A stretch of DNA of 64,000 nucleotides, taken from the IMG/VR virus record IMGVR_UViG_3300025011_000016; one strand, given 5' to 3'. The first letter of the stretch is position 1. Every line of letters begins with the position of its first letter. A program made the translations under genes and the position numbers. The DNA comes from a virus (Duplodnaviria > Caudoviricetes). Shown piece after piece: positions 1 to 28,740 of the stretch. The notes under the pieces are model-generated. The model did not search any database and was not told where the DNA came from. It was given only the letters and a program-made list of their open reading frames with translations.

Positions 1-429
1 ATAAATACTGAATTATGTAATATAAATACTCTTAAATATTATATGGATAATTTCTTAACATGGCGTAAAACTCATGATATTAAACCTATATTTGCTGAAA
101 AGCAAATAACTTCTTTAGACTTTGGGGGTACTATAGATCTATATTGTGAGTTTGATAATAAGAAAACAATAATTGATTATAAAACAAGTAAAAGTTTTTA
201 TTCATCAATGTTTCTTCAATTAGCAGGTTATACAATGCTTTTAGAGGAGAAAGGTTATATAGTAGAGCAAGTTGGTATTGTATTATTACATGAAACTGAT
301 TATAAAGAAAAGTTTATAAGTCGAGATGAGTTATCAATATATATAGAGAATTTTAAATTAGTAGTGAAGTTATTTCATTCCTGGTTTGATTTAAATGCAG
401 AAATATGGAAACGTAAACTATATGAGTAG
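1..429 (+). CDS. PD-(D/E)XK (RecB/Cas4-like) nuclease, 5'-truncated by window edge
   Basis: Frame is open from base 1. Motifs GGTIDL..IIDYKTS..QLAGY are typical of the RecB-family nuclease fold. Confidence 0.75.
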   Translation: MNTELCNINTLKYYMDNFLTWRKTHDIKPIFAEKQITSLDFGGTIDLYCEFDNKKTIIDYKTSKSFYSSMFLQLAGYTMLLEEKGYIVEQVGIVLLHETDYKEKFISRDELSIYIENFKLVVKLFHSWFDLNAEIWKRKLYE

Positions 430-9498: not shown

Positions 9499-9663
9499 TT
9501 AGATAGTGGTACGTTGGGATACTTCAGTGAACTTGGAGAAACACAGTCGCATAGCATCTAGATTATCAGTAATAAGGGCTTTATTCATTTCAACTCGTAT
9601 TTCATCATACTTTCCTTTCCTTTCTTCAGCTTCCCTGTTTAACTTTTCAAGATACTCTTCCAT
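9499..9663 (-). CDS. Small hypothetical protein (54 aa, MEEYLEKLNREAEE...)
   Basis: Read manually. RBS AAGGAG, and a TATATATTAT motif at 9702-9711 (minus strand). Confidence 0.55.
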   Translation of the reverse strand: MEEYLEKLNREAEERKGKYDEIRVEMNKALITDNLDAMRLCFSKFTEVSQRTTI

Positions 9664-9792
9664 AAAATAACAACTCCTTAATTTAATTATTGCTTAATAT
9701 TATAATATATATTTGAAATTCACTATGTTACGTTTTTATTTATGTCAGTACATTTATATAAATGGATCTAGTGATAAAAAGGATTTGATGTT

Positions 9793-12615
9793 ATGAAAAT
9801 TGTACCTAATAAACAACAAAAGAAAGCTGTTATTGAATCAGTGAAATGGTTAAAGAGTGGTTATAAACAAGTCTTTGAAATATCAGGTCCTCCAGGATCA
9901 GGTAAAACCTTTATAGTTTATTTAATACGAAAGGCAATGAAGCTAAATCCCTTGGATGTTCTATTTATGGCATATGTAGGAAAAGCTACAATGGCTTTGA
10001 CATTACAAGGTAATAATGCAAAGACAATGCATAGTTCTATTTATGATAGGGTTGATTTACCTAAGATGGATGAGAATGGTAAGTTTATTTTAAAAAATGG
10101 TAGAATACTTACAACTCCTGGTTTTGTTAAGAAAAAATCTTTACCTGATAATATAAAACTTATAGTGGTGGACGAAGGTTCTATGATTAATGAAAAATAC
10201 GCTTTAGATATTTTAAGCTTCAAGTTACCAGTTTTAGTGCTCGGGGACTTAAATCAGCTTTTTCCTATCTTTGGGAAACCTTATTTCTTAAGACAACCTG
10301 ATATTATATTAACAGAAATTATGAGACAGGCTAAAGATGATCCTATTATTCATTTAAGTCAAAAGGCAATTAATGGTGAAATTATTGAGATAGGAAAATA
10401 TGGTGATAGATGTTTTGTTATTAATAAAGAAGATATCACAGACAATATGCTTACAAAAACAGATATCGTTATTTGTGGTAAAAATAAGACACGGGATCAT
10501 ATAAATAAATATGTTAGAGAAGAAATATATAAAATAGACAAGCCTTATCCAGTAAAAGGTGAGAAATTAATATGTAGACAAAATAATTGGGATATGTCTG
10601 TCGATGAAGGTAAAATATTCTTAGTTAATGGTCTTGTAGGTTACGTTGAAGAAACACATTTAGACACTTATAATAAAAGATCTTTATGTATTGATTTTAG
10701 GCCTGAGTTTTTAAAAGAAACTTGTTTTGAAAGAGTAGCAATTGATTCTTTTATGAGTCACGTTGCATAGTAATATGCAATTGCAACTACTTTAATTGCG
10801 GGAAACTCCTTAGAACTTTATCTACTAATGTAACATGATAAAGATTGGACAATCTGCAGCCAATGATCTATTCATAATAGATTTAGGTCCAACGACTAGA
10901 ATGGGAAAGTTCGTAGGGCTCAAGTGAGTGGGTGAGACTCCCTTAAATCGAAATGGGTGGCCCCATTATAATAATTAGTATAATGGGTGAAGATATAGTC
11001 TGTGCTTTAAGGAAACTTAGAGAATAACTAACCGTAAGTCTTAATAACTATTCTGTATATAATTATATTATACAGTTAACAAATAATATAAGAACGGGGG
11101 TGATATAAAATGATTAAGACTTTTAAAACAAGAATACGACCGAATAAAGAACAAGAGGTATATTTAAATAAGTGCTTTGGGTATAGAAGGTTTATATATA
11201 ATAATGCGTTAGAATACTTTAATACTCTTTTAAAATATAATAATAATGTTATTGATAAGGATTTAAAGAAGTTCTTTGATAAATTTGATTATATTACTCA
11301 TATATATTCTAAGAAAGAAAAGGGACCGGGATTTGAATGGACTAAAGAATATAATAAGTCCATAAAGAATGAAGTGGCTAGTGATGTTAACTTAGCTGTT
11401 AATAGATTTTTTAAAGATATTAAAAATAAGAAGCGTTGTAAACTGCATTTTAAAAGAAAGGTTCATGGAAATGGATCGTTTAGAATATATAGTAAGCATA
11501 AAACTAATGTTATGATTCTTGATATGAAATTATTCTCTTTTATTATTAATAGAGAATTTGGTCATATGTCATTAAAAACATATGAGGACATAAGTTTCTT
11601 ATATCATCATGATATAAAAACAATGACTATTAGTATGAAGAATTTTAAATATTATGTCTCATTTACTTATGAAATAGATGTTCCAAAGCATAAGCATGAG
11701 AAAGATACCATAGGTATAGATTTAGGGATACATAATCCGGTAGTTTGTTTTGATGGAAAAGATATCATAAATCCTAAATTTCCGAAAGGAATTATTAAGA
11801 AACTAGAGAAGAGAGCCGATAAATTTTCAACGATAGTTTCTAAGAAGAAATATGATAAATGTAATCCATCAAAGAACTATATAAAAGCGAGAACCAAGCT
11901 TAATTATATTCATGGTAAGATAGTGAATATTAGAATGGATTATATTCAGAAGGTTTCAACCTTCTTAACTAAGACTTATAGAAATATCGTAGTTGATGAA
12001 TTTAGTTTTAAAGAATTACTAACAGAGTCTGATGGTATTAAACGTATTAATAGAGGTATACATAGAGTAGGTGCCTTTACGTTTATGCAAGTGTTAAAAT
12101 ATAAATGTCACTTTTACGGCAGTGAATATATTTTAGCCGAACCTAATAGTACCATTACATGCTCTGAATGTAATCATAAACTTAAAACTAAGTTGAAGTT
12201 ATCCCAAAGAGTCTTTAATTGTCCTGATTGTGGATATATAGATGATAGGGATAATAATGCGGCTATTAATATTTATAAGTCATATAAGAATCTTTATTAA
12301 CTAACGTAAATAGAGATTTCGCCGTTGGTCGGACGGTTTAAAGAACCTTGACGGTTAAGTTATTGTGGTATCTAACGAATACTACTAACACGACAGTATA
12401 AGCATTTATTTACACCATATGAACAGAGAGATAATAAACGTAGCTATTATAATAAATTTGAATTTGCCAACGCAATAAGCGTTCATTTATCACAAGGATC
12501 ACAATATAATACAGTTTTAATATATAATGAAAGAATGGGAGATAAAGAGTATTATAAGAAATGGTTATATACAGCAATATCGAGAGCGGTATCCGGATTA
12601 GTATTGGCCGTTTAA
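9793..12615 (+). CDS. RecD/Dda-like SF1 helicase, 2 exons (~390 aa spliced)
   Basis: Exon 1 9793-10746 has GPPGSGKT and VDEGSM. Exon 2 12397-12615 has SVHLSQGSQY and LYTAISRA. Junction reads VAID|YKHLF. Confidence 0.88.
10747..12396 (+). mobile_element. IStron-like element 1: group I intron + tnpB + omegaRNA-like right end
   Basis: Inserted after TTGAT. P1 TGAT/GTCA, ribozyme core 10790-11000, tnpB downstream of the S element, conserved right end ...CTAACACGACAG. Confidence 0.88.
11110..12300 (+). CDS. tnpB: TnpB (IS200/IS605-family RNA-guided nuclease)
   Basis: N-terminal KTRIRP..EQ..L..CFG..RFIYN, RuvC-I GIDLG, zinc finger CSEC..CPDC, RuvC-III DRDNNAAINI. Confidence 0.92.
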   Translation: MIKTFKTRIRPNKEQEVYLNKCFGYRRFIYNNALEYFNTLLKYNNNVIDKDLKKFFDKFDYITHIYSKKEKGPGFEWTKEYNKSIKNEVASDVNLAVNRFFKDIKNKKRCKLHFKRKVHGNGSFRIYSKHKTNVMILDMKLFSFIINREFGHMSLKTYEDISFLYHHDIKTMTISMKNFKYYVSFTYEIDVPKHKHEKDTIGIDLGIHNPVVCFDGKDIINPKFPKGIIKKLEKRADKFSTIVSKKKYDKCNPSKNYIKARTKLNYIHGKIVNIRMDYIQKVSTFLTKTYRNIVVDEFSFKELLTESDGIKRINRGIHRVGAFTFMQVLKYKCHFYGSEYILAEPNSTITCSECNHKLKTKLKLSQRVFNCPDCGYIDDRDNNAAINIYKSYKNLY

Positions 12616-12646
12616 TACATAATATTATTTGAAAGGAGTTAGTATA

Positions 12647-12799
12647 ATGCAACCACCTAAGGTATTAACAGACTTAATGAAACCATTAACTGAGCAGAAC
12701 AATAGATTAATATCTGAAACTCTTACTGATAAGATCAATAGAGTTAAATCAAAGTTTAATTTATATCACGGTAAAGGTAAAAAGAAACGACGTAAATAA
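12647..12799 (+). CDS. Small basic hypothetical protein (50 aa)
   Basis: Read manually. RBS GAAAGGAG, K/R-rich C-terminus. Confidence 0.5.
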   Translation: MQPPKVLTDLMKPLTEQNNRLISETLTDKINRVKSKFNLYHGKGKKKRRK

Positions 12800-12820
12800 A
12801 ATAATAGGAGGTTCTATTAT

Positions 12821-13099
12821 ATGAGTTTGGAAAGTTTACTAGCATTTGTAGCTAATGTTGGAGAAGATAAAATTGCAGGTTTTTCATTTAATAATAGTGG
12901 CAGGGTAATGTTTACATCAAGTAAAAGTTTCTCATTGGACGGAAATGTGACTGATGATGGATATCTTAAAATTGGGGATAGTGATACCGATGGGAATATT
13001 TACTACATGTATAAACCGATTGCTACTATCGAATCGATTATTGTAGTAGATGATGCTCTTGCCCGTGACAAACTTAATCTACGATACATCTTCGGTTAA
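12821..13099 (+). CDS. Hypothetical protein
   Basis: RBS AAGGAGG and a clean ORF. Confidence 0.6.
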   Translation: MSLESLLAFVANVGEDKIAGFSFNNSGRVMFTSSKSFSLDGNVTDDGYLKIGDSDTDGNIYYMYKPIATIESIIVVDDALARDKLNLRYIFG

Positions 13100-13240
13100 C
13101 CATTAAAATATAGAGAGGGAATTTATCCCACTCTATATTTTATCATTATGATAAATTTAACTATAACTTCAATTATATATTATTAGCTTAGAAACAATTA
13201 ATCAATGTAGAGTAAATAAAAAAATAGGGGGAATTTTAAG

Positions 13241-13723
13241 ATGAGAGACAAAGACATTAAAGAGTTCGAACATTCCATGGAAAGAATCCAGGAAAAGAAA
13301 AAGTTAATTGAGCGAGAAGAAAAACAAATTATGGTTAGATGCGCGCATCAAAACCGTCGCCGTAAATTGAAGATCAAGCCAATAGATGAACGAGGTAATT
13401 TCAAGTGTAAAGATTGCAGCACCGAATTCAATATGAATCCGATTATCCGTGAGGATCTAAAGCGGGCAATTCAAATTCTGCATGATGCCATTCAGCAAAT
13501 TCGCTGCTTTGCAGATCCTGACGAGGATGGAAAGATGATCCGTCTTCTCGGAGAAGCTGACTTCAACAACGAAGAAATACAACGCTTATACGCCCGGACT
13601 CTGGACGCGTATAGTAAGAATCGGAAGAAAGATAAATTCGGTGATCGAGATCGTGACAATTTCGGTTCTTATGGAACTGGCGCTATTAGCTTCATCGGTT
13701 CTCGTAAGAAAGACCGCAAGTAA
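13241..13723 (+). CDS. Hypothetical protein with possible Zn-binding CxH..CxxC
   Basis: RCAHQ...CKDC, with TATATATTAT at 13174-13183. Confidence 0.6.
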   Translation: MRDKDIKEFEHSMERIQEKKKLIEREEKQIMVRCAHQNRRRKLKIKPIDERGNFKCKDCSTEFNMNPIIREDLKRAIQILHDAIQQIRCFADPDEDGKMIRLLGEADFNNEEIQRLYARTLDAYSKNRKKDKFGDRDRDNFGSYGTGAISFIGSRKKDRK

Positions 13724-13898
13724 TCATTCTATTTTACAAGTGCATAAGATGGGCAACTATCTTATGCACTATTTATATCTCTTTTATTTAGGGAATTATT
13801 TTTTAAGGATAATTGATTCCGTAACATAGAAAATAACAAATTATTATTAGAGTAACATATCGATAAGTAATAGAAGAAGGAGATGTGAAATAAAAAAT

Positions 13899-16800
13899 AT
13901 GGCTAAATTTACAGATGATCAAATAGAACACATAGAAAGTGACATAGAGAAGATTCAGACTAAGCCTAAATATAATTGGGCTATTATATAGTGATATATA
14001 ATATAAACTTTTTTAATTGACGGAAACTTCCTTAGAGTCTAAACTACTAAATTGATATTTTAGTATATTGATGGCTGAGTGTAATTAACTCAGGTATAGT
14101 AATAATGTTTAGGATTGGATAATCCGCATCCAAGTCTCTTATAATAAGAGAAAGGTTCAACGACTAAATGTAGAGCTCAAGTGAGTGGGTGGAAATCCCT
14201 TAAATCGAAATGGAAAGCATCTTTAATAAAAGATGATGATATAGTCTTATATCCTAATGAAAATTAGGGAAGTTCATAATAGAACTGCACAGCTCAGCAA
14301 ACTGTGTGAAATAATGAATATGTACGTCAGCTATTTAGCACACCTAGGCGCATTACATTTATCTAAAGAGGTAATAAATAATTCTATAGATGAATGTATT
14401 AATCAAAATTCACCAGCTAACGAAATTAATATATATTTAGATGAAGGTGAGAATACTTTACTAGTTGCTGATAATGGTAGAGGAATAGCTTTCGATAAAA
14501 TGGAAATTGTGTGCACTAAATTACAAGCAGGTAGTAAGTTTACCAGAGAGGGTAGTGGTGGAGCTTCTGCTGGAGAAAACGGGTGTGGCATTACGGCCGT
14601 GAATTCGCTGTCGGAACACTTTGAGATAATCTCAACTCGTTATGGTGAAAGGGCTATAATTGAATTTGAATCTGGTAAGTTGGTCAGGTCACCAGTAATT
14701 AAAAAAATCGGTGATAAAACTAAACACGGTACTACAGTAAAATTTAAACCCAATCCATTTTACATGGGTGACGATTGTGATATCCCAACAGATTTATTGA
14801 TTGAATGGATTGAAAAAATAGTTTATTTAATGCCATCAAATATAGAAATATCACTAAGTGTCTCCAGAAAAGGTAAAGAATCTGCAATAAATAAAAAGTA
14901 TCGTAATAAAAATGGTTTAAAGGACTATATTTTGAAATTGTGTAAAAAGCCTATTTTAGATCCAATTCATTTTATGAAATCTTTAAAAATTAAAGAATTT
15001 GATAAAGGTAGAGAGATCGAAAGATTCATTGGATTAGAAACAGCTTTTACTTACAATTCAAATAGTATGGAACCTATTATTGAATCATTTTGTAATTTTG
15101 TGGTCACTGTTGAAGGGGGTATTCACAACGATGCTGTTAAACAAGGTGTTGTCCAATTCTTAGTTAGGAAAACTAAGGAGGGTTTATCTGATAAAGAATC
15201 GAAAAATATTGATATACTACCTATAGACGCTACTCAAGGATTAGTGTTGACATTATACTTAAGTACCGATATGAATATGATGTTTGCATCACAAACGAAA
15301 GAAAAACTTTCTAATAATGCTTTCTTCAAACCACTCAGAAACATGACATTTAATTCATTGGATGAATACTTTAAAAAAGAAGTTAATGATTTAAAGAAGA
15401 TAACAAGTTTTATTAAGACTAATGCTAAAGCAAGAATTGAATCAAACAAAGCTAGAAATGCTGTTATTAAAGGTGAAACTACTTCATTCGAAGAACACAA
15501 AATGAAGAATTTCTCTCCTGCAAATAATTTAGGGAATGATTACAGAGAGTTATTTGTTATAGAAGGTAAATTAGATTGCCTTATTTTCTTTAATTGACGG
15601 GAAACTCCTTAGAACTTCTTAATTGAAGATTGGACAATCCGCAGCCAAGTCTCTTTATATAAGAGAAAGGTTCAACGACTAGAGTATGTAAGCTCGTAGG
15701 TTTATTTATAATCCGAAATGGGAAAACAATAGATTTATTCTATTGAAGAGATAGTCTAATATCCTAATTAACATTAGGGAAGTTCATAAGAGAACTGTAT
15801 AGAGTTATAATCTATATGAATGATTGGATTCAGCAAAGGGTAGTGCAAGGTTAGGTAGGGATACGGATACTCAGGCATTATTTGCAATGCGAGGAGTTCC
15901 ACTTAATAGTTTTAATCTAAAGTTAGATAAAGTTTTATTGAATGATGAATTTAGGGATTTAACTAAAGTATTAAAATGTAATATCGGTGAACGATTTGAT
16001 ATTACAAAACTAAATTATAAAAAAATAATCATACTTACGGATGCGGATTAATTCATAGTCCCATTATGTAGTGATATATAATGTAAACTTCTTTAATTGA
16101 CGGGAAACTCCTTAGAACTTCTTAATTGAAGATTGGACAATCCGCAGCCAAGTCTCTTTATATAAGAGAAAGGTCCAACGACTAATAGTAGGGCTCAAGT
16201 GAGTGGGGTAATAACACCCTTTAAATCGAAAATAGAGGCATCTTTTATAAGATGATGATATAGTCTACACTTTATTGAAAGATAAAGAAAGATAGCATCT
16301 TTACATTATCTAACGAATAATGTTAATATGAATGGATTGATGGTTTGAGAATAGCCTCACTAATTTGTGTATTCTTCTTATGTCATATGCCAGAGATAAT
16401 TAAGCAAGGATATTTATATAAATCAGTATCACCACTATATTTATTAAATGATACTAAGGGTCATTTTATTATTGATAAAAAAGAGTATGTATCAGTTTTT
16501 GAAAAAGCTGTTAGAAATAACATTAAAGTTATTGATCCAGAAACTAATATTGTTTATACTAATAATGAGATGAAAGAGTTACTATTAAAGAATAGGGGAT
16601 ATTTAGAGGAGTTATACCGAGTTAGTAATCATTTTGCAGTTAATCCTTTTATCATTGAATACATCACCATATATGGGGATCAATCAAATTTCATAAATAA
16701 AATGAAAAAGAAATTCCCTGAGTTAACACTTGATGAAGAAAATGTTTTATCTGGTATATATGAAGGAAAATATCAGATTATTATATTGGATAAAATATTC

Positions 16801-17172
16801 GAAAAGAGAATTGCAACTCTTCGTAATATGATAAGGATAGTTAATGATAATAAAATCCATTATATAGTGAATGATAATCATGGTAATCAAGTTGACTCTA
16901 GAGGAATATTAACTTTAGGGGAATTCCTAACAGTATGTCAAAAATATCAACCAGAGATCGTGTCCAGGTTCAAAGGTTTGGGTGAGCTACAGCCCAATGA
17001 TTTATGGAAAACCACTCTTGATTTTGAGTCCCGTACCTTGATACGTTTAACAATGTCAGATGTTTTAGATGAATTAGAAAAGTTCAAAATATTACATTCT
17101 AACGACTCTATAGAATCAAGGAAAAAGCTTATGGGTAACTTCAAGATCGATAGAGAGGACTTAGATAATTAG
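13899..17172 (+). CDS. gyrB: Type IIA topoisomerase/gyrase B subunit, 4 exons / 3 introns (~792 aa spliced)
   Basis: Exons 13899-13967, 14317-15567, 15827-16048 and 16336-17172. Restores KP|NMY, TOPRIM EG|DSA and TDAD|IDG. Also NSIDE, DNGRG and RFKGLGE. Confidence 0.92.
13968..14316 (+). ncRNA. Group I intron gyrB-I1
   Basis: P1 AGCCT/GGGCT and core motifs. Confidence 0.88.
15568..15826 (+). ncRNA. Group I intron gyrB-I2
   Basis: P1 AAGGT/GCCTT and core motifs. No P2 hairpin. Confidence 0.9.
16049..16335 (+). ncRNA. Group I intron gyrB-I3
   Basis: P1 GGAT/GTCC and core motifs. Confidence 0.9.
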
Positions 17173-17191
17173 TTTTATATAAGATGAAAAT

Positions 17192-17887
17192 GTGAAATTC
17201 AACCCAACTATTCATTTAAAAGGAGTGTTTGTTATTATTAATGATTTAACTGGTAGGGAATTTGGTAGGTGGAAAGTTATTAAAATAACTGATGAGAGAA
17301 CTAAAGATGGTAATGTTAAATGGTTATGTGAATGTAGTTGTGAGAAGCGCACAACAAAAACTGTCAGTGGATCAAATTTAGTAAAAGGAGTTTCAACAAA
17401 CTGTGGATGTGTTCGTACAGAAAAAGTGAAAAAGCGGGCAAAACATGGTCTGTGGAACACTAGAATTTATAAAACATGGCATAGTATGAATAGAAGGTGT
17501 TCAAATCCTAAAGATTCGAATTATGTGAATTATGGAGGTCGTGGAATTACAGTATGTGAAGAATGGAAAGAAGTCATACCTTTTTATAATTGGGCTATAA
17601 ATAATGGTTATTCCAAAAAATTAACTATTGATAGAATAGATAACGATAAAGGATATTATCCTGAAAATTGCCGTTGGGTGAGTATGTATGTTCAAAGTAG
17701 GAATAAACGGAGTAATAATTTTATCACCTTTGAAGGTAAAAGTAAAATTATTACTGATTGGGCAAAATATACTGGATATGATATAACTACTATTAGACAT
17801 AGGATAAATAATAATTTACCTATTGAGGAAATATTAGCACGTAAACCGAATAGATATTTTATTGATATAAATATATTGAGTAAATGA
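17192..17887 (+). CDS. Free-standing HNH-type endonuclease
   Basis: WLCECSC..CGC, YGGRGITVCEEW and TIDRIDNDKGYYPENCRW. The true start may be slightly downstream. Confidence 0.8.
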   Translation: MKFNPTIHLKGVFVIINDLTGREFGRWKVIKITDERTKDGNVKWLCECSCEKRTTKTVSGSNLVKGVSTNCGCVRTEKVKKRAKHGLWNTRIYKTWHSMNRRCSNPKDSNYVNYGGRGITVCEEWKEVIPFYNWAINNGYSKKLTIDRIDNDKGYYPENCRWVSMYVQSRNKRSNNFITFEGKSKIITDWAKYTGYDITTIRHRINNNLPIEEILARKPNRYFIDINILSK

Positions 17888-17888
17888 T

Positions 17889-20303
17889 GTGGAGGGTATA
17901 ATGATGTCAGTAAATGATCGGAAACTGAATAATCAGGTTTATGATAAAAATATAGTGATTGGAAATATTGGTGATATATGCACTGGATATATGAAGATAT
18001 TTGGTGCAAATAATAATTTAATGCGCCACATCCCAATAATCGCGGACGGTTTGAAGCCCGGAGAACGACGTATTTTATATACAATGTCAGAAGTTATGGG
18101 TATTACACATAAGGGTAAACATAAGAAGTGTATGGGAATTGTGGGACGTACGGCTGATATACACCCTCACGGCGACCAGGCCTTATACAGCACATTAGTT
18201 AAACTAGCGCAGAAATGGCAAAATACAATTTGTCTGATTGATGGATCTGGAAATTTCGGTAGTCCGACTGGAGAAACTGAGGCTAGTATGCGATATACGG
18301 AGGCCCGTTTGAGTTTTTATTCATATAAATGTTTCTTTGAAGAATTTAACCCAAATATAGTAGATATGAAATTATCATATAATGGAGAAATATATGAGCC
18401 TGAATTCTTACCATCTAAATACCCAAATGTTTTAATTAATCAAGCATTTGGGATTGGATACGGTTTATCTAGCTCCATTCCAACATATAATTTCAAAGAA
18501 GTTATTGATTTAACAATTAAATTAATGAATGATCCTGATTATGGAGATATTGTTTTAATACCTGATAGTCCTTCAGGTTCTCATATTATTGATGATGGTC
18601 AGTTTGAGACTATATCGAAAACTGGTAAAGGTAAATTTAAAATGAGGGGAACAATTGAGATTGATAGTGAAAATAATATAGTAACCATTACTTCAGTACC
18701 TCTATATGTAAATAGTGATGATGTAAAAGCCGATATAATTGATTTATTCAAGGAAAATAAGATGCAGGGATTGAAGAAAATCGATGACCAATCTTCTGAA
18801 AGAAATGGTACTAAAGTAATATTTTATTTAAAAAAGGAAGTCGATCCCGTTTCGATTATGCATAGTATCTACACTAAGACTAATATGGAAAAGACTTATC
18901 CGATAAATTTTAAACTCATAGATGACTATCAAGATGTTGATTATAATATACGATCCCTTTTGTTAACTTGGCTAGACCAACGGAGAGAAGTTAAACGCCG
19001 TCTATTTAATCATACTCTCATCAAAGCGAAAGAAAGACAACATGTTTTAACCATTCTATTATTCATATTAAACAAAGATAATGCTGAGAAAACTATGAGT
19101 ATCGTTAAGAAGTCTGAAAATAAAAAAGAGATTATTAAGAAATTAATGAATTCATATGGCATTACATCATTACAGGCGGATACTATTGCCGAAATGAAAT
19201 TAACTGCATTTTCTAAAGAATCACTCAATAGATATATAAAAGAGAAAGTTGATATTGATGAGAAGGTTACTAAATATGAAAAACTTGTGCGTTCCATTAA
19301 GAAAATTGATAAAATTATTAAAGAAGAATTAGAAGAAGGAATTAAACTATTCGGTGAGCCAAGACGGAGTAAGATTATTAACATTGATGGTGAGGTTAAA
19401 ATTCGAGATACTAATCATTTAGTTTCATTTACATTAAATGGATTTGTTAAGAAATTACCTGAAGGATGTACATCTATTGGTTTCATTAATCAGAATGATT
19501 ATCCTATAGAGATTATTGAGATAAGGAATACAACAGATTTATTGATCTTTGATGAAAGTGGAAAAATATCTAAGCTTCCTGTTCATTTATTACAAAACAG
19601 TGAATTAACAGGAGAAGGTGAAAAGCTAAGTAAATATTGTAATATTAATGGTAGTATAAAAACTATAATACCAAAACCTACTACTGAGATATTATCTCAA
19701 GTTAAAATACCAATATATTTCTTAATGATAACTACCAATGGTATTATTAAGAAGACTTTAGCAAATTCATATACTAATATCAAAAATGATTTAATAGGTC
19801 TTATTGTTAAAGATGGCGATACATTAAGATCGGTTAAGCTATTGGCTGGAGACAAAGACGTGGTTATTTATACTAATAAAGGATTCGGTGTCAGACTTAA
19901 ATCTGATGACATTAAAACTACAAGTAGAATGTCTATTGGTATTAAAGCTTTAGAATTAGGTCCTAATGAGATAGTTATTGGTATGGATCTTGTTAATGAA
20001 AAGGATAAATACTTATTTGCATTAACTAATCATGGCACGGGTAAGAAATGTTTACTTAGTGCATTTAAAACTATGGACAGAAATAGTAAGCCCTTAAGAA
20101 TTATATCATTAGAGACTAATGAAGAGGTCATATTTATAAAAACTGTTAAAGGTAATGAAAATTTCAAAGCTTATATGAAAAATAAGATCGAAACTATAAA
20201 TATTGAAGAAGTATTTGAGTTGCCACGCTTATCAAAGGGTAAGAAGATACTGGGTGTACTCAAAGGAGATACTATAATTGACATCAAAGAAGTAACTAAG
20301 TAA
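17889..20303 (+). CDS. gyrA: Gyrase A / type IIA topoisomerase A subunit
   Basis: DGLKPGERR, HPHGD, catalytic MRYTE and C-terminal beta-pinwheel-like repeats. Confidence 0.93.
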   Translation: MEGIMMSVNDRKLNNQVYDKNIVIGNIGDICTGYMKIFGANNNLMRHIPIIADGLKPGERRILYTMSEVMGITHKGKHKKCMGIVGRTADIHPHGDQALYSTLVKLAQKWQNTICLIDGSGNFGSPTGETEASMRYTEARLSFYSYKCFFEEFNPNIVDMKLSYNGEIYEPEFLPSKYPNVLINQAFGIGYGLSSSIPTYNFKEVIDLTIKLMNDPDYGDIVLIPDSPSGSHIIDDGQFETISKTGKGKFKMRGTIEIDSENNIVTITSVPLYVNSDDVKADIIDLFKENKMQGLKKIDDQSSERNGTKVIFYLKKEVDPVSIMHSIYTKTNMEKTYPINFKLIDDYQDVDYNIRSLLLTWLDQRREVKRRLFNHTLIKAKERQHVLTILLFILNKDNAEKTMSIVKKSENKKEIIKKLMNSYGITSLQADTIAEMKLTAFSKESLNRYIKEKVDIDEKVTKYEKLVRSIKKIDKIIKEELEEGIKLFGEPRRSKIINIDGEVKIRDTNHLVSFTLNGFVKKLPEGCTSIGFINQNDYPIEIIEIRNTTDLLIFDESGKISKLPVHLLQNSELTGEGEKLSKYCNINGSIKTIIPKPTTEILSQVKIPIYFLMITTNGIIKKTLANSYTNIKNDLIGLIVKDGDTLRSVKLLAGDKDVVIYTNKGFGVRLKSDDIKTTSRMSIGIKALELGPNEIVIGMDLVNEKDKYLFALTNHGTGKKCLLSAFKTMDRNSKPLRIISLETNEEVIFIKTVKGNENFKAYMKNKIETINIEEVFELPRLSKGKKILGVLKGDTIIDIKEVTK

Positions 20304-20369
20304 TAAAAAATATACATCTGTTCACATATATAGGTAGTATATTAAGAGAAAGAGTGGGGTTTTAATAGA

Positions 20370-20933
20370 ATGGGAGAATTCATATTCTTAAGTAACTATG
20401 TAAAAGATTCTGAACGTATTACCGATATAACAGGATATCTATTAAGTCAAAAGATACAATATTATATTGGTGAGCCTTTAGAAGTTTCTGAAGGTTTGGA
20501 ATCAGAACTTGTTGGAATATATATTATTTTACCTACTACTTATGAAACTATTAATGATATATTCGATCGTAGGGAATTCATAAAGAATATACCCATTCAT
20601 CGAAGATTCATTATGACATATGAGGAAGAATTTAGACCAAAGATAGATAAGTTTTTATCTATATTATCAAATAAGAAATCGATACAATCTTTCAATTATA
20701 CTAAGAGTAAAGGAATACTTATGCTAATTACTGAAGTTGATGATAAAGTGGGATGTATTCCTGCTGATGTATTACTTAAATTAAATAAGAGTTTTGATAC
20801 CTTGACATATAGTTTAGACATGGACAGAGTAACACAGATATGCAATATATTTGGTTGTGATGTCGACGAGTTAACACATATACTTAGTGATGGTTTATGG
20901 ACTAAATTTGGAATTGATATATACAATCTATAA
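20370..20933 (+). CDS. Hypothetical protein
   Basis: Clean ORF followed by a palindromic terminator. Confidence 0.6.
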   Translation: MGEFIFLSNYVKDSERITDITGYLLSQKIQYYIGEPLEVSEGLESELVGIYIILPTTYETINDIFDRREFIKNIPIHRRFIMTYEEEFRPKIDKFLSILSNKKSIQSFNYTKSKGILMLITEVDDKVGCIPADVLLKLNKSFDTLTYSLDMDRVTQICNIFGCDVDELTHILSDGLWTKFGIDIYNL

Positions 20934-20939
20934 ATGATT

Positions 20940-20983
20940 AAAATAAAAGATATACGATTTAAATCGTATATCTTTTATTTTTT
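20940..20983. terminator. Perfect palindromic bidirectional terminator
   Basis: AAAATAAAAGATATACGATTT/AAATCGTATATCTTTTATTTT between convergent genes. Confidence 0.7.
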
Positions 20984-22252
20984 TTAAGCCTCATGATTAG
21001 ATACTAACTCGAATAACTCTCTAAAATCTACCATATTATGAAATACCTTTATTGTCATGTAATTAAGCATCCACGAGAAAATCCGCCTACTATTGTCATT
21101 CTTATTGAAATCGAGATAATATTCATTAATAAATTTTTCAGAACTCTCTATATCATCTTCAAGAGTTTTTCTTAATCTGGGATTTAAATCAGGATCTTTT
21201 AAATCCCTCTTTAGTTTATCTAATTGAGAATTTATTCTAACGGCGTCCTGTGGATGAGGATCGGCGATAGCCGTTAACATTCCCAAGGTTACATTAAGCA
21301 GATCATAACCCCAGTTTAATAGGGGAATTTTGTATATAATTTGATCGGAAATAAGGTTTTCTCGTTTATGTAGTTTATTTTGGAAGCTCATCATGGCTGG
21401 ACCATATCCATATGTGGAAGCAAAACTATCTGAGTATTTTTCTCCAGCATAACCAAATATATTTCTTGAATTTAAAGCACCCAACACTATAAGTTCGGGA
21501 CCTTTAATTACATTAATAAAACTCTTAACTTTAAAATACGCCATAATATTTAAATAACCTTCCCAAAAAGTTGTAGCTGCTCTAAGTAATCCAGGAAATT
21601 TATTTATCAATAATGACTCGACTAATTTTATCGTATTTGTATATTTACCCCCTAAATTAAACACATCATATATTCCTAAAACCATAAGTGTGTTTATAAT
21701 ATATACAGGACCATTTTTTATAAATTCTGGGACTAACATAATATCTAGTGGTAATTTAGACAGGAGTGTGAACATTGATATATCCATATTATGACCTATT
21801 TCATGAAGTATGACTGCCATAATTTCTTCTGCTGTTAAATCAGCGTATAATACTAACAGTATATCTATATTCACACCCACGTGCATAGTAGATACATCTG
21901 TAGATCCCGTATTATCTCGATGAAAGAAATTAAAAGCTCTTGGTATAGTAAATGCATTAAACGGGGTTGTTAATAATACAGGCTTCATAGGATAATAGAA
22001 ACATAAATAGAATTCACCAAATCCAAATTTCTGTTTAAATAACTTCTCTATAAGAATAACACTATCATTCTTATTCAGATCAGTTATTTTTATTGGGGTA
22101 TTAATTTTTTCTTTTAAATCGGAAAATTTGGGATTATCTTTTCGTATTATTTGTATTATTTTATCCAGTTCTTTTTCTATAATAAGAAATTCTTTAGGTT
22201 TACCATAATATGCTTCGGTAACAGGTTTCATAAATGATGTTAATATGCCCAC
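20984..22252 (-). CDS. HExxH zinc-metalloprotease-like protein, probably virion-associated
   Basis: AVILHEIGH..EKYSDSFA, with an AACA-N6-TA motif upstream on the minus strand. Confidence 0.55.
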   Translation of the reverse strand: MGILTSFMKPVTEAYYGKPKEFLIIEKELDKIIQIIRKDNPKFSDLKEKINTPIKITDLNKNDSVILIEKLFKQKFGFGEFYLCFYYPMKPVLLTTPFNAFTIPRAFNFFHRDNTGSTDVSTMHVGVNIDILLVLYADLTAEEIMAVILHEIGHNMDISMFTLLSKLPLDIMLVPEFIKNGPVYIINTLMVLGIYDVFNLGGKYTNTIKLVESLLINKFPGLLRAATTFWEGYLNIMAYFKVKSFINVIKGPELIVLGALNSRNIFGYAGEKYSDSFASTYGYGPAMMSFQNKLHKRENLISDQIIYKIPLLNWGYDLLNVTLGMLTAIADPHPQDAVRINSQLDKLKRDLKDPDLNPRLRKTLEDDIESSEKFINEYYLDFNKNDNSRRIFSWMLNYMTIKVFHNMVDFRELFELVSNHEA

Positions 22253-22283
22253 GATAAATCACTTCCTTCTATATATTCGATAT

Positions 22284-22310
22284 TAAACTATTGTTTAAAA
22301 CAATCATTTA
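22284..22310. promoter_or_regulatory. Back-to-back divergent late-type promoters (AACA-N6-TA on both strands)
   Basis: TA-aactat-TGTT-taa-AACA-atcatt-TA between divergent genes. Confidence 0.6.
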
Positions 22311-22342
22311 AATAGATAATGTTGATAGGTAGGTGTATTTAT

Positions 22343-23506
22343 ATGGCTAAAGATGACAGTGTTTTATTAGATGAGTTATATCCTTTAGTTGAAAAGGGTT
22401 TATCTAAAAAGGAAAATAGTATGAAGATAAAGAAAGCTGTTGGTGAGTTCTTAGATAGAAATTCTGAGAAATTAACTACTATTGGCCCGATCCATCAAAT
22501 GATGTTTACAGATGAAGATATGAAAAAACTATACGATGCTATCGAAGTTCCACCTGAGCAGATAAAAGAGATAATTAAGAAATCTCCATATATACAAACT
22601 CAGTGGAAGATTATGAATAATCCATTTAATTCAGCTTGTGTATTAGCACTCAGATTTTATAAATTACATAAGAATGATGAAATGGTTAATTCAGTCTTAA
22701 TATATCTAACTATGTCTATGTATCCATCATTATTTCATAAATACTTTCAGTTTGAACCCAATGAAAACATAATGAATTATACTATTAATAGCTTATCTAA
22801 TAAATTTAAAATTAAACAAACTGGTACTATATATGGGGCATTAATAGATACTGTTAGAGTGAATGATACAAAATATGGAGATGAGGTATTACATGGGACT
22901 GATAAAGAATTAGTAGATTATATTAACTCTATTAAAACTCGTTTGAATAGTTTATTAAAACATATCTCTATTGAGTTTTATAAGAATCATGAAAATAAAA
23001 ATTATATGAATTCAGACTCTGATAATTTAGAAGAAGAAAACTATCATGAAGCTGACAGTAATTTATATGCAATTGAAAGGATAACTAATAATGTAGTTCT
23101 TAAATTAACAGTAGAAGGGCCTAATATTAAATTGATCAATATGGCTGCTGAATTATCACAAGTTAGTAGAAATGAATTAAGGAATTATGTAAATTCAATG
23201 GTCTTAAATAATAATAGAGATGATATCAAAATTATAGTAGAGAGTATATTATTCTTATTTTTATTTGATTCACAAAATCAAATTCAAGAATTAAGTAGTA
23301 ATAAATTTCTATTGTATTGTAGAGAGATGTATCGAAAGTCTAATACAAATGATGAAAACATAATAAAGATAAAGAAGATATTAGACTCATGGTTAACTGA
23401 CTTAGGAACATATAAAAAGACCCAAAGATTAGCTACTATTAACTCATTTAGAAAAGCTTTATTTATGTTTTTTGTTATAAGTATCCAGAATGCAAATGTA
23501 GTTTAA
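22343..23506 (+). CDS. Hypothetical protein (jumbo-phage type)
   Basis: Long clean ORF. ATG 22343 follows AGGTG. Confidence 0.65.
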   Translation: MAKDDSVLLDELYPLVEKGLSKKENSMKIKKAVGEFLDRNSEKLTTIGPIHQMMFTDEDMKKLYDAIEVPPEQIKEIIKKSPYIQTQWKIMNNPFNSACVLALRFYKLHKNDEMVNSVLIYLTMSMYPSLFHKYFQFEPNENIMNYTINSLSNKFKIKQTGTIYGALIDTVRVNDTKYGDEVLHGTDKELVDYINSIKTRLNSLLKHISIEFYKNHENKNYMNSDSDNLEEENYHEADSNLYAIERITNNVVLKLTVEGPNIKLINMAAELSQVSRNELRNYVNSMVLNNNRDDIKIIVESILFLFLFDSQNQIQELSSNKFLLYCREMYRKSNTNDENIIKIKKILDSWLTDLGTYKKTQRLATINSFRKALFMFFVISIQNANVV

Positions 23507-23755
23507 AGATGATACGAATATGATTTAAATCATATTCGTATCATCTTTATCTTCCTCTATATAGACATCTTCACATTTTAAACCTCTAATTAACATACTC
23601 TCAAATATATCATCGGGAATTTCATTTACCAAGTATTTATTATATGAGTTGAGTTTACAACCGGCTTCTACATCTTTGACACCTATGAATTAGTTCATTC
23701 ATTAACATATCAGCTCCTTTATTTATATGTAAACACTTTTTTATAGTATAATGAA

Positions 23756-23767
23756 AACATTTTATTA
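23756..23767 (+). promoter_or_regulatory. Late-type promoter AACA-N6-TA upstream of the split RBS
   Basis: AACA-ttttat-TA. Implies a ~24-nt leader containing AAAGGAGG before the intron. Confidence 0.55.
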
Positions 23768-23790
23768 ATTGAGACATTATAAAGGAGGAT

Positions 23791-24381
23791 TCATATTGAG
23801 TCTCGTTGCATAGTAATATGTAATTGTAACTACTTTAATTGCGGGAAACTCCTTAGTGCTTAAAACACTTTTAAAGTAACAAAGTTTAAGATTGGACAAT
23901 CCGCAGCCAAAGTTATTATTTAATAACGAGGCTCAACGACTATCCCAATGGTACTAAAATGTACATTAGGAGTAGGGCTCAAGTGAGTGGGTGAGATTCC
24001 CTTAAATCGAAAAGGGTAGCCCCATTATTATAATGGGTGAAGATATAGTCTGTGCTTTAAGGAGACTTAGAGATATAACTTAACCGTAAGTAAGTCTTAA
24101 TAATTCATTCTTAATAAGATATTATTATAGTTATAACAAATAATATAAGAAGGGGGTGACGATAAATGTTTAAAACTTTTAAATACATCTGACTAAAAAA
24201 GCTATGTATTGACACGAAACTTATAAATAATGGCGATAACCAAGCCTATTAATAATATTTATAAGTTGTAAAAATCTTTATTAACTAGCGTAAATAGAGA
24301 TTTCGCCGTTGGTCGGACGGTTTAAAGAACCTTGACGGTTAAGTTATAAGTGGTATCTAACTAATACTACTAACACGACAG
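23791..24381 (+). mobile_element. Mini IStron-like element 2 (tnpB internally deleted) in the SD-AUG spacer
   Basis: Inserted after GGAT. P1 GGAT/GTCT, intact ribozyme core, tnpB remnant and same right end ...CTAACACGACAG. Confidence 0.88.
24166..24290 (+). pseudogene. tnpB: tnpB remnant (start MFKTFK and last codons only)
   Basis: Same RBS/leader as the full copies, then a stop after 8 codons. The 3' part aligns with ...ATTAATATTTATAAGT..AATCTTTATTAA of element 1. Confidence 0.75.
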
Positions 24382-24385
24382 GAAT

Positions 24386-26063
24386 ATGTCTATTACTAAA
24401 CAGGCTAGAAAACAAATGGAATTATTAATTTATTCAGTATTTACAGCTTTAGATCCAACTGGTTCTAATACTGCTAAATATAAAGAATTATTTGGTAAAA
24501 TGAATGATACTCAATTTGATAAATTCTTCAAAGATTTCTTTAAAGAGGAAGATGAGTATCTTATATTAGACGTTATTGATTATGAGTTAAATCTTCAAAT
24601 GGAAGATGTAGAAAGAGCTGCAAAGATTCTTGATGTACCTTTATTCGAAAAAGTTGCAATGCCATTTATTAACAACAATACAGAAAATCCTGTTGTTACT
24701 CAATATGAAGTTCCGGTTGGTTACATTAACTTGAAACGGGTTCAACAAATATTAGCTAAAAAAAATACTACATCTACAGAAATATCAACACGTTCTGCTA
24801 TAACAGGACAAGTTGTTGGTAAGGATAAAAATGCCAGAGATTCAGATCAGGAGAATTTTGCTCTTGTCACTTTAAATGCTACGAACACATTACGTGAGCT
24901 TTTGGGTTATGTTGCTTAGCCCCTATATACGGTAACGTATATAGCAAACTTCTTTAATTGCAGGAAATTCCTTAGAGCTTATTATATGAAGATTGGATAA
25001 TCTGCATCATATTTTCTAATGATTAAAATATTTTCTTACTAATAAATATACAATATTTTAAAGGATGTGAATTATAAAAATGTATATAGTCATTCGTAAA
25101 GATAGAGAAATATTTAAACTTGTAACATATCCTAAAGTCAAACCTGATACTTATGAAGTTAGTAATTATGGTAATATTAGAAATTTAAAAACTGGCAAAT
25201 TAGTAAAATTATTTCCCGATACAAAAGGTTATCCTTTTGCAAATCTTATGTATAAAAAATCCATTGCTCGTAGTGTTAATATCCATAGGTTGGTAGCGTG
25301 GGAATTTGTAGATGGATATGATATAGATCGAGGGAGAACTAATGTTAATCATCTGGACAGCGATCCTACTAATAATTATTATGAAAACCTTGAATGGGTT
25401 ACAACTAAAGAAAATAATCAACATGGTATTAAACATGGTAAGATTAGATTTGGTGCAGGTGGTAGTCTAAATTATAAAGCTAGATATAATGAAGAATTTT
25501 GTTCGTAAACTATGTCCATACATTGAAAAAGGACTCACTCAAATGGAAATAATGCATATTTACGGTTATAAAACAAGAAAAGAAAATAAAAGTTTATATT
25601 CTTTAATAGATGGAATTTACTGGGGTGTGTGGAGAGAGGTATCAAAAGAATTTAATATTAATATAAAACAAGAAAAATGTTCAACGACTATCCTTTAGAT
25701 GTGAAATTCATCATTAGGAGTAGGGCCTAAGTAGGTGGGTGAGACTCCCTTAAATCGAAATAAGAAGCATCTTATATAAGATGATGATATAGTCTTGTAT
25801 CCTATATAACTATAGGGAAGTTCATAAGAGAACTGCATAGATTAACGAACTATGTGAAAGTATCGCCCAGGAGTGATGACCTTGTGATGAAAAATCAAAT
25901 GTATGCTAGTATAGCTCAAAAAGGATATGTATCACTAGATGAACTACCGAACGATGTTGCCAATAAAACAACGCTGAATACAATTGATGTGCATCTTATT
26001 GGCTTAGGTATTAAAAGCGATTTAATCACTCAAGGATTATTAGTTAGAAAGACTATGAAATAA
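24386..26063 (+). CDS. RNA polymerase beta-subunit C-terminal fragment (~239 aa spliced; probably virion RNAP)
   Basis: Exons 24386-24907 and 25866-26063. VPVGYINLKR..ARDSDQENFAL..TLRELLG|PRSDD parallels bacterial RpoB VTVGYMYMLKL..RFGEMEVWAL..TLQEMLTVKSDD. Confidence 0.75.
24908..25865 (+). mobile_element. Group I intron with HNH endonuclease ORF in P6 region
   Basis: P1 GGGT/GCCC. Q motif lies before and R/S motifs after the ORF. Ends ...GTATCG. Confidence 0.88.
25080..25698 (+). pseudogene. Intron-encoded NUMOD4/HNH endonuclease, frameshifted
   Basis: HRLVAWEF..NHLDSDPTNNYYENLEW. One extra T in GAATTTTGTT (~25500) splits EEF|VRKLC into ORFs 25080..25508 and 25489..25698. Confidence 0.75.
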
Positions 26064-27468: not shown

Positions 27469-27594
27469 CTTATTGAATGTATATAAGAAGATATTAATAT
27501 CTTCTTATATACATTTTAAGTTTTACTAAAAGTTAATTATCAATATAAATATATATTATCATGGTATAGATCAAGCCTATTAATATATTAAGGA

Positions 27595-28740
27595 GTGATA
27601 ATATTGCTAAAGTTATGTATTATTGGATTGGGTAATTGTGGTAATCAAATCGCTGAATTAGCAAAGAAAGAGAAGAATATTCCGGGTATCGCTATTAATA
27701 GTTCTGAAAAAGATCTTACTACTATCAATACTGTTGATAAGATCCTAATAGGCGATATGATGGGTAGTGGTAAAGATCGGAATGAAGCTAAACGCTTCAT
27801 AACTCAAAATATTCAGTTGATACTTCAACAAGAAGTATTTAAAAAGCTGATAGAAGAAAGTAACGTGATATTCATAGCTTCTTCTACTAGTGGCGGAACT
27901 GGCTCTGGTATGACACCGATCTTAACTGAAATACTTACGAAAATTTACCATGGGAAAAGATTCGTTGTCATTCATGTTTATCCGGCAATTAGTGAGTCTG
28001 TTGCGGCTCAACAAAACTCACTGGACTATTTAAAAGAGTTGAGACAATTTATTCCCAATATTACCTATATGGCTTATGATAATCATCGTAGGTCAAATGA
28101 GCCGACTGACAGAATGATGACTGAAATCAACATGCAAGTGGTTAATGACATTTGTGTGATCCGTGGAGATTATCAATACTCAACTCAATATAGTTCAATT
28201 GATGAAAAGGATATGCTTAAGTTAATTGAAACTCCAGGCCGGTTGTTGATAACAACTGTAAATGGTTTAAAGGAAAAAGATCTTGATGAAAAATCTGTTG
28301 AGGATATCTTAATATTTGATATCAAGAACACTTCAGTAGCAGTGGAAATTGAGCGTGACCGACTTATAAAAAGAATAGGTCTGATCACGAACTTAAATGA
28401 TAAAATCCATAAAGCATTCAATACTAAGTTAATTATCTTCAAAGAATTTATCGGTGAGCCGGTAGAAGGATTCGAACATATCCATATCAATAAAGGCCCA
28501 GATGAATCTAATCAAATTATTGTAATAATGTCTGGCTTATCAGTTCCAGACGATCGTATTCAGAAAATGATTCAAAGGATTGAAGAAGTTCGATCGGAGT
28601 TAATGAAAGTTCAAGGATCATCTATCCTCGATTCCATAAAAACCGAGGATATTGATATATTACGAGAAAACTCTGGACGGTTTGATCCAGAGAGTCAAAT
28701 TAACCTGACTGACGTTATGGCAAAATATCTTAAGCGTTAA
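27595..28740 (+). CDS. tubZ: Tubulin/FtsZ-family GTPase (TubZ/PhuZ-like)
   Basis: GLGNCGNQIA, GSGKDR and tubulin signature STSGGTGSG. Confidence 0.88.
   Translation: MIILLKLCIIGLGNCGNQIAELAKKEKNIPGIAINSSEKDLTTINTVDKILIGDMMGSGKDRNEAKRFITQNIQLILQQEVFKKLIEESNVIFIASSTSGGTGSGMTPILTEILTKIYHGKRFVVIHVYPAISESVAAQQNSLDYLKELRQFIPNITYMAYDNHRRSNEPTDRMMTEINMQVVNDICVIRGDYQYSTQYSSIDEKDMLKLIETPGRLLITTVNGLKEKDLDEKSVEDILIFDIKNTSVAVEIERDRLIKRIGLITNLNDKIHKAFNTKLIIFKEFIGEPVEGFEHIHINKGPDESNQIIVIMSGLSVPDDRIQKMIQRIEEVRSELMKVQGSSILDSIKTEDIDILRENSGRFDPESQINLTDVMAKYLKR

Follow-up and report, generated by a model that had tools for sequence, protein, structure and literature searches.

Group I introns with an embedded tnpB gene in an AR9/PBS1-like jumbo phage: a transposase-less IStron-type family with proposed RNA-guided homing

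The virus record IMGVR_UViG_3300025011_000016 was analyzed over a stretch of 64,000 nucleotides (below, the window), which encodes GyrA, GyrB, tubulin, split RNA polymerase (RNAP) beta subunits and virion proteins; judged by its sequence, the phage is an AR9/PBS1-like jumbo phage. Three related elements, called here E1, E2 and E3, lie in the window, and two of them (E1 and E3) carry a tnpB gene behind a group I intron ribozyme. We somewhat favor the view that E1-E3 belong to a multi-copy family of IStron-type elements that has no transposase, splices itself out of the host transcripts and homes with the help of TnpB, the guide being taken from exon 2. The elements and the genes that house them are the following.

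9793-10746, plus strand: exon 1 of a RecD-like superfamily 1 helicase gene (Pfam AAA_30 and AAA_19), ending in GCA ATT GAT
10747-12396, plus strand: E1, full IStron-type element of 1650 nt inside the helicase gene
12397-12615, plus strand: helicase exon 2, 72 amino acids and a stop codon (Pfam UvrD_C_2 at 2.6e-11)
23791-24381, plus strand: E2, 591-nt derivative with ~1 kb of tnpB deleted, in the leader of an RNAP beta-subunit gene
39187-40914, plus strand: exon 1 of ligA, encoding NAD-dependent DNA ligase (PDB 1v9p, E 1e-33, aligned to chain residue 527)
40915-42583, plus strand: E3, full element of 1669 nt inside ligA
42584-42952, plus strand: ligA exon 2, in frame, with a helix-hairpin-helix and BRCT-like region

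With a slash marking each end, the boundaries read TTGAT/TCTTTT...CGACAG/TATAAG for E1, AGGAT/TCATAT...CGACAG/GAATATG for E2 and TAGAT/TCAAGT...CGACAG/TTATGC for E3. As can be seen, every element starts with TC right after GAT; the loop of P1 and then GAGTC(A/T), the internal guide sequence, come next, and the common terminus is TAACACGACAG. The right-end core TTTCGCCGTTGGTCGGACGG has three exact occurrences in the window, with none expected from shuffled sequences. Between copies, the 96-nt right end is 93-97% identical and tnpB is 84-89% identical. A preliminary description of this DNA had listed three related elements inserted after GAT and sharing a right end, and all three were recovered at the positions that it gave. 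Homology of E2 to the full copies is confined to nt 1-392 and the last 114 nt, the remnant in between being degenerate; E2 retains the ribozyme and the first ~29 nt of tnpB.

Exons 1 and 2 of the helicase gene align, without gap or overlap, to residues 1-317 and 318-388 of an uninterrupted 389-amino-acid homologue, P0135, from another phage-sized contig. Removal of E3 joins LigA in frame (ELID/LCLKNK), the BRCT match of exon 2 being weak (E 0.043). E2 has a Shine-Dalgarno sequence, AAAGGAGG, on its 5′ side and the start codon (ATG, 24386) of an RNAP beta-subunit gene on its 3′ side; the product of this gene matches phrog_3233, RNAP beta. Only spliced RNA would give normal Shine-Dalgarno-ATG spacing in this region (23781-24391), and therefore translation of RNAP beta may depend on splicing. 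The elements had been described as residing in helicase, ligase and RNAP genes; the first two genes are indeed split, but E2 lies outside the coding sequence. As far as can be judged from these alignments, the ends of the elements coincide with splice sites. From the structure described below and the exact exon joins, we infer that E1-E3 are self-splicing.

The ribozyme and its first helix are located in E1 as follows.

10747-11022, plus strand: E1 group I ribozyme core, P1-P9 (Rfam RF00028, 80.8 bits)
10743-10760, plus strand: E1 P1 helix, in which exon TGAT and intron TC are paired with the internal guide sequence GAGTCA

The Rfam model Intron_gpI (RF00028; gathering score 50 bits) was matched over its full length (1-253) by E1 and, with 86.3, 80.3 and 83.9 bits, by E2, E3 and a further copy in the terminase gene. 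Some introns escaped Rfam when long stretches were scanned (E1 and E3 in 64-kb scans, the virion-gene copy L022 in a 12-kb scan), and short stretches were scanned separately. When scanned alone, the introns at 10738-11022 and 40905-41207 score ~80 bits, and L022 2132-2420 is 87% identical to such introns; whole-window scans thus undercount introns. Group I introns of one family number at least 26 in the window; all are on the plus strand, most have no open reading frame (ORF), and they interrupt replication, transcription and virion genes. The count is based on 26 P3/P4 motifs, 30 P7 motifs and 22-23 Rfam matches per scan. When the ribozyme cores are arranged in a tree, those of the TnpB-bearing elements fall into one clade (support 0.999) within the intron set of the window, and the ribozymes closest to this clade are those of ORF-less introns at 16039 and 44496.

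A U.G pair in P1 of E1 marks the 5′ splice site after 10746, and the last base of the intron is G. For each of the five insertions whose 5′ flank is known, exon position −4 is paired with the final base of the internal guide sequence: GAGTCA pairs with TGAT in E1 and the terminase-gene copy, and GAGTCT pairs with GGAT or AGAT in E2, E3 and the virion-gene copy. The covariation of internal guide sequence and target noted earlier for the window is thus upheld, and it extends to copies outside it. The insertion sites are TTGAT, AGGAT, TAGAT, ATGAT and TAGAT, with only GAT constant. This trinucleotide had been taken for a target-adjacent motif (TAM) of TnpB. GAT does precede every element, but P1 alone explains it: because P1 requires GAT and ORF-less sister introns share it, the site is not independent evidence of a TAM. 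An automated P1 finder applied across all introns was noisy and served as a rough guide only. Pairing of P10 with exon 2 is convincing in E3, possible with a bulge in E1 and E2, and weak in the terminase-gene and virion-gene copies, and was not used as evidence.

Two full-length tnpB genes are present in the window.

11110-12300, plus strand: E1 tnpB, 396 amino acids, with the Shine-Dalgarno sequence GGGGGTGA upstream
41296-42537, plus strand: E3 tnpB, 413 amino acids, TTG start; the ORF continues through hairpins A and B of the right end

Both proteins match Pfam HTH_OrfB_IS605, OrfB_IS605 and Cas12f1-like_TNB above the curated cut-offs, and a Shine-Dalgarno sequence precedes each tnpB start codon. 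Among proteins from natural elements in the PDB, the best match is ISDra2 TnpB (E 5e-26), a nuclease whose TAM is TTGAT. Residues D204, D296/E297 and D381 and the four zinc-finger cysteines (CxxC...CxxC) are invariant in eight variants, D204 and D381 being aligned with D191 and D361 of ISDra2 TnpB. The ratio of nonsynonymous to synonymous substitutions (dN/dS) between copies is 0.13-0.20, at dS of 0.42-0.67. By these sequence comparisons, tnpB is intact in E1 and E3 and under purifying selection. The closest relatives, 83-99% identical, are encoded on groundwater metagenome contigs of 248,564 and 272,509 bp, a size in keeping with the earlier assignment to a jumbo phage. TnpBs outside this clade are at most 34% identical, and the nearest of them (P0005, P0013 and P0026, 30-33% identical) are not adjacent to group I introns, which suggests that the fusion of intron and tnpB was here a separate event.

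The right end of the elements consists of the following parts.

11024-11035, plus strand: 5′ strand of the E1 bracket helix (P9.1-like), pairing with 12351-12363
12290-12337, plus strand: E1 hairpins A (12290-12317) and B (12321-12337), candidate omegaRNA scaffold, inside the bracketed loop
12351-12363, plus strand: 3′ strand of the E1 bracket helix, in duplex with the sequence after P9
12365-12396, plus strand: E1 terminal hairpin (loop CTAACGA) and tail TAACACGACAG, homologous to the 3′ ends of ORF-less introns
12397-12416, plus strand: start of exon 2 (20 nt), which would be both guide and target of E1
24274-24381, plus strand: right end of E2 with hairpins A and B, bracket 3′ strand, terminal hairpin and tail

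Directly after P9, ATAACTTAACCGT is the exact complement of ACGGTTAAGTTAT, which is located ~46 nt before the 3′ end, and the two can form a 13-bp helix. In all splicing-competent copies, the predicted energy of this duplex is −14.6 to −21.6 kcal/mol, and the helix is part of the minimum-free-energy fold of the whole of E2. According to these folds, the 13-bp bracket helix loops out tnpB. The terminal hairpin has 7 bp and the loop CTAACGA and is followed by the tail; one compensatory pair is found in E3. Since the last ~32 nt are shared with ORF-less introns and 13 nt more take part in the bracket helix, the right end is partly ribozyme. The conserved right end that had been pointed out earlier is thus present in all copies, but its last ~32 nt and the 13-nt helix strand are features of the ribozyme. 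Hairpins A and B, in turn, are nearly invariant in six copies and absent from the ORF-less sister introns. E2 keeps both of them free of coding constraint next to a decayed tnpB remnant, and in a truncated copy (L020, described below), they are conserved together with the 3′ strand of the bracket helix, while the 5′ strand has degenerated.

In the E1-E3 family, CGAC at positions −6 to −3 of the tail is complementary to GUCG in the hairpin-B loop, so that a pairing between them is possible. Each 16-nt putative guide occurs once in the window and is preceded by CGACAG rather than GAT, as the self/non-self logic of TnpB requires. The proposal that the guide is the 3′ flank is supported in so far as every copy has a flank of its own behind CGACAG. 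As a separate observation, a RAGATH-18 RNA (76 bits) was found directly downstream of a tnpB gene in Bacillus phage vB_BceS_LY4 (L014 3671-3732); this is a guide-RNA-like motif that Rfam recognizes, unlike the right end of the E1-E3 family.

Outside the window, at least three further copies from the same phage were found on contigs encoding related TnpBs. A full element in the terminase gene terL (L001) has the boundaries ATGAT/...CGACAG/GAGTTT. Another full element (L022; TAGAT/.../ATAAGG) splits the gene of a virion protein of ~900 amino acids, the exons of which align to positions 11-436 and 480-878 of phrog_18960. An intergenic copy (L020, 2200-3788), which sits behind two long palindromes, has lost element nt 1-243, and only the 3′ strand of P7 through P9, an intact tnpB and the right end remain; judged by what is missing, this copy cannot splice. 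The six loci (helicase, RNAP-beta leader, ligA, terL, virion gene and one intergenic site) have distinct flanks, so that a single right end is joined to six different 3′ flanks, and in the reads, at least three additional flanks follow position 12396. An apparent variant of the helicase copy with another 3′ flank (L011; ERZ909591 k127_43395) was rejected as a chimeric assembly across the repeat, in which the 5′ part of E1 is fused to tnpB and the 3′ flank of the virion-gene copy. A megablast search with E1 against 50,697 phage records gave no match, and a search for the right-end pattern in viral contigs gave none either. In metagenome contigs, the same pattern retrieved five loci, of which four are chance matches in GC-rich DNA and only L009 is genuine. 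L035, a match to the hairpin-B pattern in viral contigs, was likewise rejected as a chance occurrence.

Among deposited phages, the best tblastn matches were found in the Staphylococcus jumbo phages Machias (MW349128; three copies) and LY01 (OR836606; two copies). Their elements of ~1.65 kb have no tnpA, contain a compact group I core of ~175 nt (43.7 bits with the full model) and carry a tnpB that is 34-38% identical to that of E1. GGAT or AGAT precedes them and is matched by their internal guide sequence; they also contain the hairpin-B motif TCGCC...GGTC and the tail TAACAnGACAG. In two Machias copies, a bracket helix of 13-14 bp is present, the sequence of which is unrelated to that of the E1-E3 family. 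Machias gyrB is split exactly at LEAVRHRSD/MYVG by a TnpB intron of 1653 nt (L024 1230-2882; MW349128 ~227900-229552). In the Machias record, gyrB exon 1 is annotated as a hypothetical protein, GyrB starts at the methionine of MYVG and tnpB is called a transposase; for the LY01 copies, the annotation is hypothetical protein. Introns, but no TnpB, are mentioned in the paper on these phages. The elements of both groups are thus alike in core, bracket helix, tnpB, hairpin B, tail, GAT site, multiple copies and the lack of tnpA, and those of Machias and LY01 differ by a smaller ribozyme, a longer right end, an unrelated bracket sequence and a retained glutamate in RuvC-II.

The distance from the tnpB stop codon to the element end in Machias is ~195-200 nt, a length that fits a scaffold reaching the splice site. 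In four of the five Machias and LY01 copies, the hairpin-B loop is GGUCA and the tail is GACAG, so GUC can pair with GAC. In the fifth copy, the loop is GGGUA and the tail is ACCAG (GGU with ACC), and three pairs are kept through two double changes. This covariation of loop and tail is, in our opinion, the best available argument that the putative scaffold extends to the 3′ splice site and that exon 2 would serve as the guide.

By domain content and boundaries, E1 and E3 are IStron-type elements, since a 5′ ribozyme and tnpB are combined in one element whose ends are splice sites. Their initial classification as IStron-type composites without tnpA agrees with the group I model, the TnpB domains and the splice-site ends found here. 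Elements of this kind are not new: phage IStrons, tnpB-only IStrons and the suggestion that tnpA-less IStrons home have been published (PMC4227781, PMC13565253). IStrons were described between 2000 and 2014, including copies in the C. botulinum phages c-st and D-1873 as well as tnpB-only and internally deleted forms (PMC4227781). Those of group A are inserted after TTGAT, ATTAT or TTTAT, terminate in TCAG and often lack tnpA, yet they spread (PMC4227781). For CboIStron, experiments have shown splicing, cleavage by TnpB, TnpB-driven homing and retention, and a conflict between splicing and guide-RNA formation, in which the two folds compete at the right end (10.1101/2023.11.20.567912; PMC13521648), and the guide RNA of a characterized IStron is reported to form a pseudoknot that uses terminal nucleotides (PMC13521648). 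A 2026 review proposes that tnpA-less IStrons could spread via intron homing (PMC13565253).

One close likeness is to group A IStrons, such as CdISt1/CdiIStron of C. difficile, which combine an IA2 intron with an IS200/IS605 element (PMC4227781, 10.1101/2023.11.20.567912). In both cases, a group I intron is located at the 5′ end with tnpB downstream, the ends are splice sites, a TTGAT-related pentanucleotide ending in T precedes the element, the last base is the G of CAG, and multiple copies include tnpA-less and internally deleted derivatives. The E1-E3 family differs in that no copy has tnpA or matching end hairpins, the target is relaxed to NGAT and the terminus is ACAG instead of TCAG (one ORF-less sister intron ends in TCAG). 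Furthermore, its ribozyme comes from the phage's own introns, a bracket helix surrounds tnpB, and the elements reside in essential genes of a jumbo phage rather than in a bacterial chromosome. Group B IStrons (CbISt3 and CbISt4 of phages c-st and D-1873, CboIStron; PMC4227781, 10.1101/2023.11.20.567912, PMC13521648) are also phage-borne but are of the IS607 type, with a serine TnpA, insertion after GG, the end CGG and, at the 5′ splice site, a G-C pair; for splicing, CboIStron requires no more than 18 nt of its right end. An analogy outside the IStrons is the intron endonuclease gp210 of PhiPA3, whose gene is likewise housed in a peripheral loop of an intron in an essential jumbo-phage gene and for which a role in homing and in interference between co-infecting phages has been proposed (PMC11620839). 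The target of gp210 is read by the protein, and a new site needs a new specificity, whereas in E1-E3, the guide would come from the 3′ flank.

No ORF is present between ribozyme and tnpB in the elements, and none of the 82 stop-to-stop ORFs of 80-270 amino acids in the window matches Pfam Y1_Tnp or Resolvase. The preliminary description, which saw no transposase between ribozyme and tnpB, is confirmed in this respect by both results. A comparison of the first 130 nt with the last 170 nt of the elements revealed neither a similar hairpin nor a conserved word of at least 7 nt in common. Since tnpA-less IStrons have been published, the absence of tnpA in the window does not exclude membership among them. 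In four groundwater DNA runs (contigs only), searched over 9500-25500, no joint across E1 or E2 was seen among the matches listed, a result that is uninformative either way.

We propose the following course of events for E1-E3. The element would be a group I intron drawn from the phage's own related introns, in which a P9.1-like helix loops out the cargo, namely, tnpB and two conserved hairpins, and is followed by the terminal hairpin, the tail CGACAG and the 3′ splice site. It would be transcribed with the host gene and excised exactly by the ribozyme, so that essential genes stay functional. Part of the transcripts may instead take up an alternative fold and be bound by TnpB as a guide RNA, as homology with IS605 and IStron TnpB suggests, with hairpins A and B and the 3′ tail as scaffold and the first ~16-20 nt of exon 2 as guide. 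In co-infecting relatives, alleles that lack the intron, with NGAT directly before the exon-2 sequence, would be cut by such a complex, and repair from the intron-bearing genome would copy the element into the cut allele; E2, which lacks tnpB, would be served in trans. Colonization of new sites cannot be the work of TnpB and probably relies on the mechanism by which the ORF-less introns spread, e.g., reverse splicing via the 4-6-nt guide sequence, after which the internal guide sequence would be adjusted. On the whole, we regard RNA-guided homing as plausible, the chances being about even or slightly better, and its use as a weapon of phage against phage is pure inference. A wider proposal, which we put forward only tentatively, is that TnpB has replaced protein homing endonucleases in AR9/PBS1-like jumbo phages of groundwater and Staphylococcus, with transposase-independent homing aimed automatically by whichever exon comes next, a loop-to-tail pseudoknot that links guide-RNA formation to the 3′ splice site, and a role in competition during co-infection.

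Several results speak against RNA-guided homing of a transposase-less family. The RuvC-II residue aligned with E278 of ISDra2 TnpB is Asp296 (followed by Glu297), and both Machias and ISDra2 TnpB have a glutamate at this position. Within Rfam, no guide-RNA family matches E1 (E up to 1), only the intron being matched. ORF-less sister introns at 16039 and 44496 are also inserted after GGAT, and the same hairpin loop with a TAACAC...CAG tail ends ORF-less introns (3′ ends at 16307 and 44765). The covariation of loop and tail is, by the sequences compared, a single event. The nearest uninterrupted helicase is only 65% identical, and no natural target is documented. Finally, the tnpA search covered only 64 kb of phage contigs that span 248-272 kb.

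This last point leaves room for classical IStrons mobilized in trans: another part of the phage genome, or the host, would supply a Y1 or serine TnpA that excises the elements and inserts them next to NGAT. Group A IStrons are inserted after TTGAT-like sites and, often without tnpA, have nonetheless spread (PMC4227781). The window, however, has no Y1_Tnp or Resolvase match, the left and right ends lack a common subterminal hairpin or sequence for Y1 recognition, and ACAG takes the place of the group A terminus TCAG. ORF-less introns belonging to the same family, moreover, have reached more than 25 sites of the window without transposon ends. Even though ISDra2 TnpB, with its literature TAM TTGAT, is the best-matching protein of a natural element in the PDB, mobilization in trans seems unlikely to us. 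The RuvC-II substitution, found in all eight variants, raises another possibility, namely, that TnpB with a weakened nuclease does not cut and that it binds RNA, tuning or chaperoning splicing, or binds DNA under RNA guidance. TnpB and guide-RNA folding are known to modulate IStron splicing (10.1101/2023.11.20.567912; PMC13521648), and no target alleles were seen in the contigs of the four groundwater runs, which are uninformative either way. Yet an acidic residue is kept at the catalytic position with a glutamate adjacent, RuvC-I, RuvC-III and the zinc finger are intact, dN/dS is low across the whole length, and the protein is full-length, whereas known nuclease-dead derivatives lose residues or the C-terminus. 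A protein that has given up cutting has, in our estimate, a rather small chance of being the explanation.

Alternatively, an ordinary intron could harbor the tnpB module as an IS605-like insertion sequence nested in its P9.1 loop. The guide RNA of the module would end before the 3′ strand of the bracket helix, the guide would be intron sequence identical in every copy, and TnpB would convert only module-less versions of the intron and spare intron-less genes. The homology of the terminal hairpin and tail with ORF-less introns is compatible with this arrangement, and so are the helix, which brackets tnpB in the manner of endonuclease genes in loops, and the looped-out part of the Machias right end, which, with ~135 nt and three hairpins, is long enough for a scaffold. 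In the present family, by contrast, the looped-out noncoding part amounts to ~50 nt, which is short for any characterized TnpB scaffold, and E2 keeps hairpins A and B although, with a guide common to all copies, it would itself gain nothing from them. In the Machias and LY01 elements, the hairpin-B loop also covaries with the nucleotides at −5 to −3 relative to the splice site. Ribozyme and tnpB are always found to have moved together, no GAT follows the 5′ strand of the bracket in the E1-E3 family, and the window contains no module-less intron with this bracket helix. We consider nesting quite improbable.

A family of IStrons without transposase in essential genes of virulent jumbo phages is undescribed in the literature searched. 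If TnpB does cut intron-less alleles, the elements would represent a natural RNA-programmed homing intron: unlike a protein homing endonuclease, an element at a new site would already be aimed there, and phages might exclude one another by means of it. Ribozyme and guide RNA would have the bracket helix, terminal hairpin and loop-to-tail pairing in common, a compact case of one RNA with two exclusive fates. Because homologous elements exist in the culturable Staphylococcus phages Machias and LY01, the idea is testable by ordinary phage genetics.

Several other genes of the window are worth mentioning. Two ORFs match Pfam HNH_3 and two match NUMOD4, both of which are homing-endonuclease domains; one candidate, judged by its sequence, is located at 25071-25505 within a longer intron (24956-25786), so that the introns of a single genome carry both protein endonucleases and TnpB. 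The tubulin ORF (27592-28737, 382 amino acids) contains a Tubulin/FtsZ GTPase domain (Pfam E 1.5e-17) and is PhuZ/TubZ-like, and a partial ORF at the start of the window (1-426) matches Cas4 and PD-(D/E)XK nuclease domains (Pfam E 6e-5).

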